Shown: piece by piece, positions 7,808-8,630 of the stretch
Layout: each line of letters starts with the position of its first letter
How positions within the stretch are numbered: the first letter of the stretch is position 1
Assembly (NCBI RefSeq): GCF_036971445.1
Contig: NC_091473.1
Span: forward strand, 215,636,001-215,700,000
Origin: Narcine bancroftii
Lineage: Eukaryota
Reading direction: 5' to 3'
Length of the DNA stretch: 64,000 nt
Notes under the pieces: generated by a model
Databases searched by the model: none
What the model was told of the DNA's origin: nothing
Seen by the model: the letters and a program-made list of their open reading frames with translations, nothing else
Program-made: the position numbers and the translations under genes

Positions 7808-8630
7808 AAGCTGAGTGGGTCAGCAGGATGCTGGGATGGAGAGGGGAGAAGTGCTTGGTGGGACAGCAAGGTGCTGGGATGGAGGATGAGGAGCTGGGTG
7901 GGGCAGCGGGGTGCTGGGATGGAGAGGGAGGAGCTGGGTGGGACAGCAGGGTGCTGGGGTGGAGAGGCGAGAAGAGCTGGGTGGGTCAGCAAGATACTGG
8001 GGTGGAGAGGCGAGAAGTGCTTGGTGGGACAGCATAGTGCTAGGATAGAGGGGGAGGAGCTGGGTGGGACAGCAGGGTGTTGGAGTGGATGGGGGAGAGG
8101 AGCCCATTGGACAGCAGGATAATGGGGTGGAGGGGAGATTTTCTGGGTGGGACAGCAGGGTGCTGGTGTGGAGAGGGGAGAGGTGCTGGGATGGAGGGGA
8201 GGAGCTGGGTGGGACAGTGGGGTGCTGAGATGGAGGGGAGGAGCTGGGTTGGACAGCAGGGTGCTGGAGAGGAGAGGTGAGAGGTGCTGGGTGGGTTAGC
8301 AGGATGCTGGGATGGAGAGAGAAGTGCTTGGTGGGACACCAGTGTTCTGGGGTGGAGAGGGGACAGGAGGTGGGAAGTACAGCAGTGTGCTGGGGTGGAG
8401 ATGGGAGAGGTGCTGGGTGGGTCAGCATAGAGTTAGGATAGAGGGGGGTGGAGCTGGGTGGGACAGCAGAGTGCTGGACTGAAATGGGTAGAGGAGCCCA
8501 TTGGATAGCAGGGTGCTGGAGTGGAGGTGACAGGAGCTGGGTGGAACTGCAGGGTGCTGGGGTGGAGGTGACAGGAGCTGAATGGGACAACAGGGTGCTG
8601 GGGTGGAGGTGGGTTTGATAACACAGTGCT
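7808..8630. repeat. ~40-bp G-rich (plus strand) tandem repeat in the J-C intron, switch-region-like
   Basis: About 20 degenerate copies of GAGCTGGGTGGGACAGCAGGGTGCTGGG(A/G)TGGAG(A)GGGGAG. Confidence 0.9.

Follow-up and report, generated by a model that had tools for sequence, protein, structure and literature searches.

The window analysed here, a 64,000-nucleotide stretch of Narcine bancroftii contig NC_091473.1, carries an immunoglobulin heavy-chain cluster in V-D-J-C order on its minus strand (Table 1). The V region is 60% identical to named Squalus IgW and 96% identical to named Narcine bancroftii proteins, the C exons are 28-36% identical to IgM, and further C exons and a TM exon lie beyond the left end of the window (L140-L142). 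Contigs from two sequencing runs (X5 and X7) contained V(D)J joints with added letters as well as J-CH1, CH1-CH2 and CH2-tail splices, all of which were absent from two DNA runs (contigs of 4 of the 11 listed runs). With IgW-type V and C exons, a short Cys-rich tail, rearrangement and splicing, this is an IgW heavy-chain cluster, and the first-pass annotation was right to place the repeat described below in an IgW J-C intron. Because the V(D)J and splice joints occurred in RNA contigs and were absent from the DNA runs, we infer that the IgW cluster family is rearranged and expressed; near-identical copies are indistinguishable in contigs, and expression was therefore assigned to the family. 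The RNA contigs also cover the J-C intron and carry no strand, start or level information. None of the 15 joints listed (304 further joints lay beyond these) fell within the JH-CH1 intron, and among the matches listed no run holding array sequence is on record as RNA. There is a 200-N assembly gap at 44443-44642 of the window, and the cluster lies 7.4 Mb from near-identical sister clusters, a placement or duplication that may be an assembly matter.

Table 1 Features of the IgW cluster in the window and of its intronic array (window positions).
Feature	Position	Strand	Remark
Cys-rich secretory tail of short IgW	1772..1899	-	
IgW CH2 exon	2534..2836	-	
IgW CH1 exon	3749..4063	-	
IgW JH-CH1 intron (5062 nt)	4064..9125	-	RNA joint 4063-9126 in runs X5 and X7, absent from DNA runs
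Probable minisatellite, 19 units of 39-43 bp, three WGCW per consensus unit as short inverted repeats	7808..8630		G-rich on +, the template strand of the IgW gene
Approximate site of putative ~1.26-kb deletion relative to L024 and L025, array moved towards JH	8860..8880	-	
JH segment	9126..9170	-	
JH recombination signal, 23-bp spacer	9171..9209	+	VDJ joints end at 9161-9171
DH segment between two 12-bp-spacer signals	9577..9592	-	DH letters present inside VDJ joints
VH exon, then 23-bp-spacer signal from 9970	9971..10267	-	
Leader exon, coding part	10377..10423	-	
Second shared tandem repeat, 45-47 bp, no WGCW peak, upstream of leader	10780..10916	.	3 copies; internal control for shared repeats

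The array spans 823 bp (TRF period 41-43, matches 67-75%), in agreement with the approximately 820 bp of ~40-bp units first described, and its 19 unit cores are spaced 39-43 bp apart with a single 62-bp gap. Measured from the JH splice site used in RNA contigs (JH 9126 to CH1 4063), it starts ~495 nt into the 5062-nt intron. The originally noted start ~500 nt downstream of JH thus holds here and across six near-identical clusters, but the distance is ~1770 and ~1920 nt among the other three. GC content is 62%. As the gene lies on the minus strand and G makes up 51% of the plus strand, the sense strand holds 10% G; the G-rich strand is the template, opposite to the mammalian R-loop orientation, exactly as the first-pass annotation had cautioned.

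A comparison of WGCW density with shuffled controls, proposed as a check on the original description, gave 46 sites (56/kb) against 24.3±3.3 in dinucleotide shuffles, none of 500 reaching 46; as the copies within a tandem array are not independent, tests of this kind exaggerate its significance. The remaining JH-CH1 intron has 20-22 WGCW/kb. The pentamer GAGCTGGG occurred 8 times against 0.6 in shuffles (reached by 0/500) and GAGCT 9 times against 3.5 (1/500). AGCT (10, or 12/kb) and GGGGT (10) were not clearly enriched, being reached by 35 and 53 of the 500 shuffles. The three WGCW sites of the consensus unit are present in 15, 15 and 14 of the 19 units; they had all been called palindromic, but only AGCT and TGCA are true palindromes among WGCW words. 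G-quadruplex potential, also proposed earlier, was found but was only moderate, with 8 regex matches (loops up to 12), a G4Hunter mean of 1.12 and 1 of 799 windows at 2 or above. Per-unit hairpins scored z -5.7 against 20 shuffles; the hairpin of each unit is made from the WGCW-bearing words, and hotspot density and hairpin shape therefore represent one property. Rfam gave no match in positions 1-12000 of the window.

We examined whether the repeat is common genome-wide, the outcome that had been named as fatal to a switch-related role, and found the unit confined to IgW J-C introns. Every match to a 26-base core at up to 2 mismatches (57/57) fell inside these introns, all in seven C11-type clusters, and the reversed control gave 0; the unit of the C1 clusters differs from this core by 3-4 bases and so lies outside the pattern. 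DNA contig depth over the array was ordinary (51-60, against 39-48 in the flanks and 12,000-57,000 over dispersed repeats; run X1), which together with the core matches and their control ruled out a genome-wide repeat. A DNA search returned 17 matches, of which 11 lay in nine IgW clusters and 6, all weak, in unrelated G-rich arrays with different units. These nine clusters are the intact ones, defined by V and CH1 searches as loci with both exons, and each of them has the unit, identically oriented, within its J-C intron. Neither the unit nor an array-like WGCW peak was present between V and C in 10 of 10 light-chain stretches, and unit and array were absent at three fragmentary IgW loci, including ahead of orphan C exons. 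The open-access literature searched yielded, among the entries listed, no account of this element, or of any S-like repeat in shark or ray introns matching it.

The fragmentary loci are L079 (C11:207.52 Mb), L074-L076 (C1:240.66-240.68 Mb) and L081 (C22:45.59 Mb); their defects are C exons that carry a stop and have no V, J or CH1 close by, a broken V whose C exons lie far off, and a broken CH1. Five IgW clusters, one orphan included, lie within ~0.55 Mb on C11. The six near-identical clusters are 98.5-99.9% identical, and some may be assembly duplicates. One cluster (L022/L023, C529) has a ~3.95-kb insertion in its J-C intron, which is 9.0 kb long. Near-identical clusters among L018-L024 have introns 99-100% identical and V exons that differ mostly in CDR1 and CDR2, a pattern that suggests selection or conversion acting on V.

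Copy number varies widely between the clusters. The arrays comprise 3 units in the diverged C1 clusters (~0.15 kb), 19 in the window clade (0.82 kb) and 34 in L024 (1.45 kb), with 0, 10 and 11 AGCT respectively, and WGCW density in the C1-cluster arrays is 34/kb. The C1 clusters are 65% identical to the window cluster in V, 85% in CH1 and 68% in CH2, and the array flanks are 73-80% identical. Between the window and L024, identity was 78-84% in the array, 87-99% in the downstream intron and 98-99% in the V-J region; the array thus turns over faster than its flanks. Units 10-15 of the window are collinear with units 23-28 of L024, except unit 11, and L024 units 6-9 repeat its own units 25-28, a block duplication. 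L024 and L025 share ~1.26 kb between JH and the array (70% identity) that is missing from the window clade, so the ~500-nt spacing is likely the derived state. We read the presence of the unit in all nine intact clusters as one inherited event. A germline chimera breakpoint at the array was considered and rejected, as identity to L024 (98-99% before the array, 87-99% after it) is patchy and shows no clean break.

No signal of selection on WGCW was detected in the window or in L024, either in position conservation (0.87 at WGCW positions vs 0.83 in the remaining unit for the window, 0.83 vs 0.83 for L024) or in change counts (11/108 and 27/174 at WGCW cores vs 43/270 and 59/435 at other G/C). 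The array thus has the features of a minisatellite, with head-to-tail variant units of 10-100 bp whose copy number differs at a homologous site (between paralogues) and changes faster than the flanks.

To place these values within the genome, they were compared with 80 background stretches of 10 kb, arbitrarily placed except for 8 put near the Ig region on purpose. A density of 46 WGCW per 820 bp was reached in 1 of the 80. Among 42 background arrays of at least 120 bp, some of which are pieces of one array and several of which belong to one 14-bp satellite, WGCW reached at least 34/kb in 5, skew at least 0.5 in 15, and both in none. This combination being uncommon in the background, the chance of such an array in a ~5-kb intron is ~1%, and its rarity counts against the minisatellite reading. 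WGCW-rich arrays away from Ig genes do exist, and the combination itself occurs there in L012, found by similarity, where 84 units form an AGCT array with G skew; many Ig loci, moreover, come under a survey of this kind. Ig loci here also gather hotspot-free arrays, such as that at L030 and the repeat upstream of IgW V. The latter, a 45-47-bp repeat upstream of the leader, is common to all IgW clusters, reaches at least 22-23 copies in the C1 clusters (L025:1-1105; L026:1-1004) and is likely dispersed in the genome, given the high DNA depth over it. The 14-bp satellite fills 6 of the 80 arbitrary stretches (L091, L163, L170, L174, L180, L191) and therefore probably accounts for several percent of the genome.

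Other tandem repeats were also encountered. L127 and L147 (C27:40.00-40.02 Mb) belong to a satellite, at least 20 kb long, with a period of 44/132 bp, 54 WGCW/kb and 20 AGCT/kb. Positions 53604-55016 of the window hold two adjoining, highly homogeneous arrays, of 15 bp x 30 (132 WGCW/kb) and 25 bp x 35. The V-C interval of a light-chain cluster holds the L030 array (5529-6923), a minisatellite of 55 26-bp units in which WGCW is almost absent.

Searches of the assembly with IgW V, the C1-set and two IgM queries turned up neither V nor constant exons of IgM. The IgW V search (84/84 candidates scored) gave matches down to 26-45% identity, but none of the V regions fell between 45% and 64%; for shark IgM V regions, identity to the query used is 50-60%. 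The two IgM constant queries scored at best 56.6 bits (91/154 and 91/118 candidates scored) against 124-141 bits between IgM CH4 orthologues, the bit scores coming from different programs, and the C1-set search (150/170 scored) showed nothing IgM-like in 20 stretches inspected. An IgM transmembrane query returned 0 candidates, missing even the IgW TM exons, and PF18767 had no match anywhere; both are uninformative. IgM protein searches had no named ray or skate IgM among the matches listed and were unusable as a control. A J-chain exon is present in the assembly. AID is split over several exons; searched with two deaminase families and without a positive control genome, the gene was not found, the sole match being an APOBEC2-like exon (L130:1480-2037, minus strand). 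In four other species the IgH isotypes are found linked, close to TCR alpha/delta (PMC12227049), and the corresponding interval of this assembly was sampled in part. Coelacanth is named as the fish without IgM in two reviews (PMC5192425, PMC6795676); open-access literature searched for loss of IgM, or for this ray's Ig genes, listed nothing on the array. The absence of IgM from the assembly may reflect a gap or a loss in the electric ray, a gap being at least as likely. The IgM and AID result may matter more than the array, and a genuine loss of IgM in a ray would be notable.

Taken together, we consider it probable that the array is a variable-number minisatellite, present in all nine intact IgW clusters, derived from one ancestral seed and without a dedicated switch function. 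It is not classed as an S region. It does share with S regions its place as a tandem repeat between JH and the CH gene and its high WGCW density, matched by none of the shuffles and one background stretch; the mammalian hallmarks of a G-rich non-template strand for sense R-loops, multi-kb length, and donor and acceptor S regions before C genes of different isotype were not found, the last with the proviso that the missing IgM may be an assembly gap. The proto-switch reading advanced in the first-pass annotation was thus not sustained: the G strand is inverted, the arrays measure 0.15-1.45 kb with no extra WGCW conservation, two diverged clusters have 3 units and no AGCT, no array precedes the orphan C exons and no IgM partner was found. 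The minisatellite it had named as the alternative fits best, with possible incidental AID targeting. Also weighing against a minisatellite are the persistence of the seed in clusters whose introns, now 73-80% identical, no longer have other blocks, the array's place at the classical S-mu position, a WGCW density above that of the mouse S-gamma3 consensus, the working of Xenopus S-mu without G-richness (PMC2442634) and the proposal that stem-loops mark S regions (PMC4279169).

Under the minisatellite reading, a single seed in the ancestral IgW J-C intron was likely inherited by all nine intact clusters, and units likely expanded by slippage and unequal exchange. Hairpins formed by the short inverted repeats of each unit may have favoured expansion, and the three WGCW sites would be a by-product of those inverted repeats. 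A 1.26-kb deletion in six clusters would have brought the array to ~1.0-1.8 kb from the start codon of the rearranged allele; by arithmetic, the corresponding distance after VDJ joining is ~2.3-2.4 kb in the other clusters. Hypermutation in mammals reaches 1.5-2 kb. This near the promoter, the array would probably accumulate hits wherever AID acts on it, but efficient switching is unlikely because the sense transcript is C-rich. A review (PMC5485518) reports that inverted switch cassettes were mutated as well as upright ones but gave poor switching, and that hotspots lacking R-loops are inefficient; by this precedent, AID, if present, would be likely to hit the array incidentally, and efficient switching would be unlikely. 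This step is weakened by the failure to find AID in the assembly.

The array could instead have originated as a minisatellite and then been co-opted as a focused AID break and recombination zone that exchanges VDJ between IgW clusters, convergently with switch regions and through WGCW density, hairpins and homology, not sense R-loops. The restriction of the unit to IgW, its presence in 9/9 intact clusters and a WGCW density of 56/kb against 20-22/kb in the remaining intron are consistent with such a role, but WGCW sites show no selection signal. Opportunity for exchange is provided by the five clusters (one orphan) within ~0.55 Mb on C11 and by C regions that differ between the C11 and C1 groups (CH1 85%, CH2 68%); however, where the C regions differ most, the array has just 3 units and lacks AGCT, and the six 19-unit clusters are near-identical in CH1 and CH2 where compared, so that exchange would bring little gain. 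Inter-cluster switching is on record in nurse shark (PMC4279169, PMC4588147), yet reviews state that shark switching needs no S region, and hotspots lacking R-loops switch inefficiently (PMC5485518). AID, moreover, was not found in the assembly. We regard co-option as unlikely.

Quite unlikely, in our estimate, is an independently evolved switch-like element, in which the hairpin-forming WGCW array, specific to IgW, would concentrate AID breaks and drive the exchange of VDJ among IgW clusters in a species possibly without IgM. If true, cartilaginous fish would have their first switch target of the repeat type, working in an orientation that fails in mammals, and the view of shark and ray Ig loci as lacking S regions would have to be revised.

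J-C introns often hold enhancers, and the array could be an intronic regulatory element, acting as an enhancer or, through the C-rich transcript, as a signal for pausing or splicing. Its presence in all intact clusters, with both cluster types expressed, would agree with this, but clusters with 3 units are still expressed, copy number varies tenfold and Rfam gave no match in the region searched; such a function seems improbable. Homology to, or direct precursorship of, tetrapod switch regions is extremely improbable, since array turnover is fast enough to make deep homology unlikely, and the shared intron position, the GAGCT and GGG motifs and a unit about as long as that of S-gamma (49 nt; PMC2442634) are set against the opposite strand, the short length, the restriction of the unit, within the searches made, to IgW of a single species, and the lack of an S region at tetrapod IgD, the IgW orthologue (PMC4245955, PMC4279169).

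Among known systems, the closest in form are mammalian S-mu, S-gamma1 and S-gamma3, which, as described in PMC2442634, PMC4245955 and PMC5485518, are likewise J-C intron tandem repeats with a 40-50-nt unit, GAGCT and GGG motifs and ~50% G on one strand. The WGCW density of the array (56/kb) exceeds that of the mouse S-gamma3 consensus (~41/kb, from 2 per 49 nt counted by eye; PMC2442634). The array differs in that its G-rich strand is the template, in its AGCT content (12/kb or none), in the lack of arrays before separate C genes, and in its length of 0.15-1.45 kb compared to up to 10-12 kb for mammalian S regions; 2-kb test inserts and a 10-kb S-gamma1 are described in PMC2442634. It also sits in a cluster layout, whereas mammalian S regions sit in a translocon layout with an I-promoter. 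Stem-loop structure has been proposed as a mark of S regions (PMC4279169). Xenopus S-mu is a hotspot-rich repeat like the array and illustrates that G-richness of the sense strand is not required of a switch target, but it is AT-rich and acts via its AGCT-rich part (PMC2442634, PMC5485518), whereas the array is 62% GC with few AGCT.

Nurse shark (Zhu 2012 and Zhang 2013, as related in PMC4279169, PMC4588147 and PMC8201067) shares with this ray a cluster-type IgH, in which one cluster's VDJ can be joined to the C of another. As those sources describe them, shark loci lack S regions although switching occurs, and that switching is coupled to hypermutation, whereas here an array is present, known from sequence, and no IgM was found. 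Ordinary WGCW tandem repeats can be broken off-target by AID when transcribed in mouse B cells, according to PMC4532491; those repeats are pentamers outside Ig loci, while the array lies in an Ig intron and would be a putative target.

If the minisatellite reading holds, the array is an ordinary minisatellite, yet it is also a natural experiment. One genome offers homologous IgW introns with 3, 19 and 34 hotspot units at 0.5-1.9 kb from JH, which allows the question to be asked whether hotspot arrays draw breaks in cartilaginous fish, and this bears on the origins of S regions. Locus-specific GC-rich minisatellites (VNTRs) are a general class, and the array resembles them in period (10-60 bp), strand skew, variant units, block duplication and copy-number change; what sets it apart from the usual VNTR is that it lies in an antibody intron and is unusually rich in WGCW.
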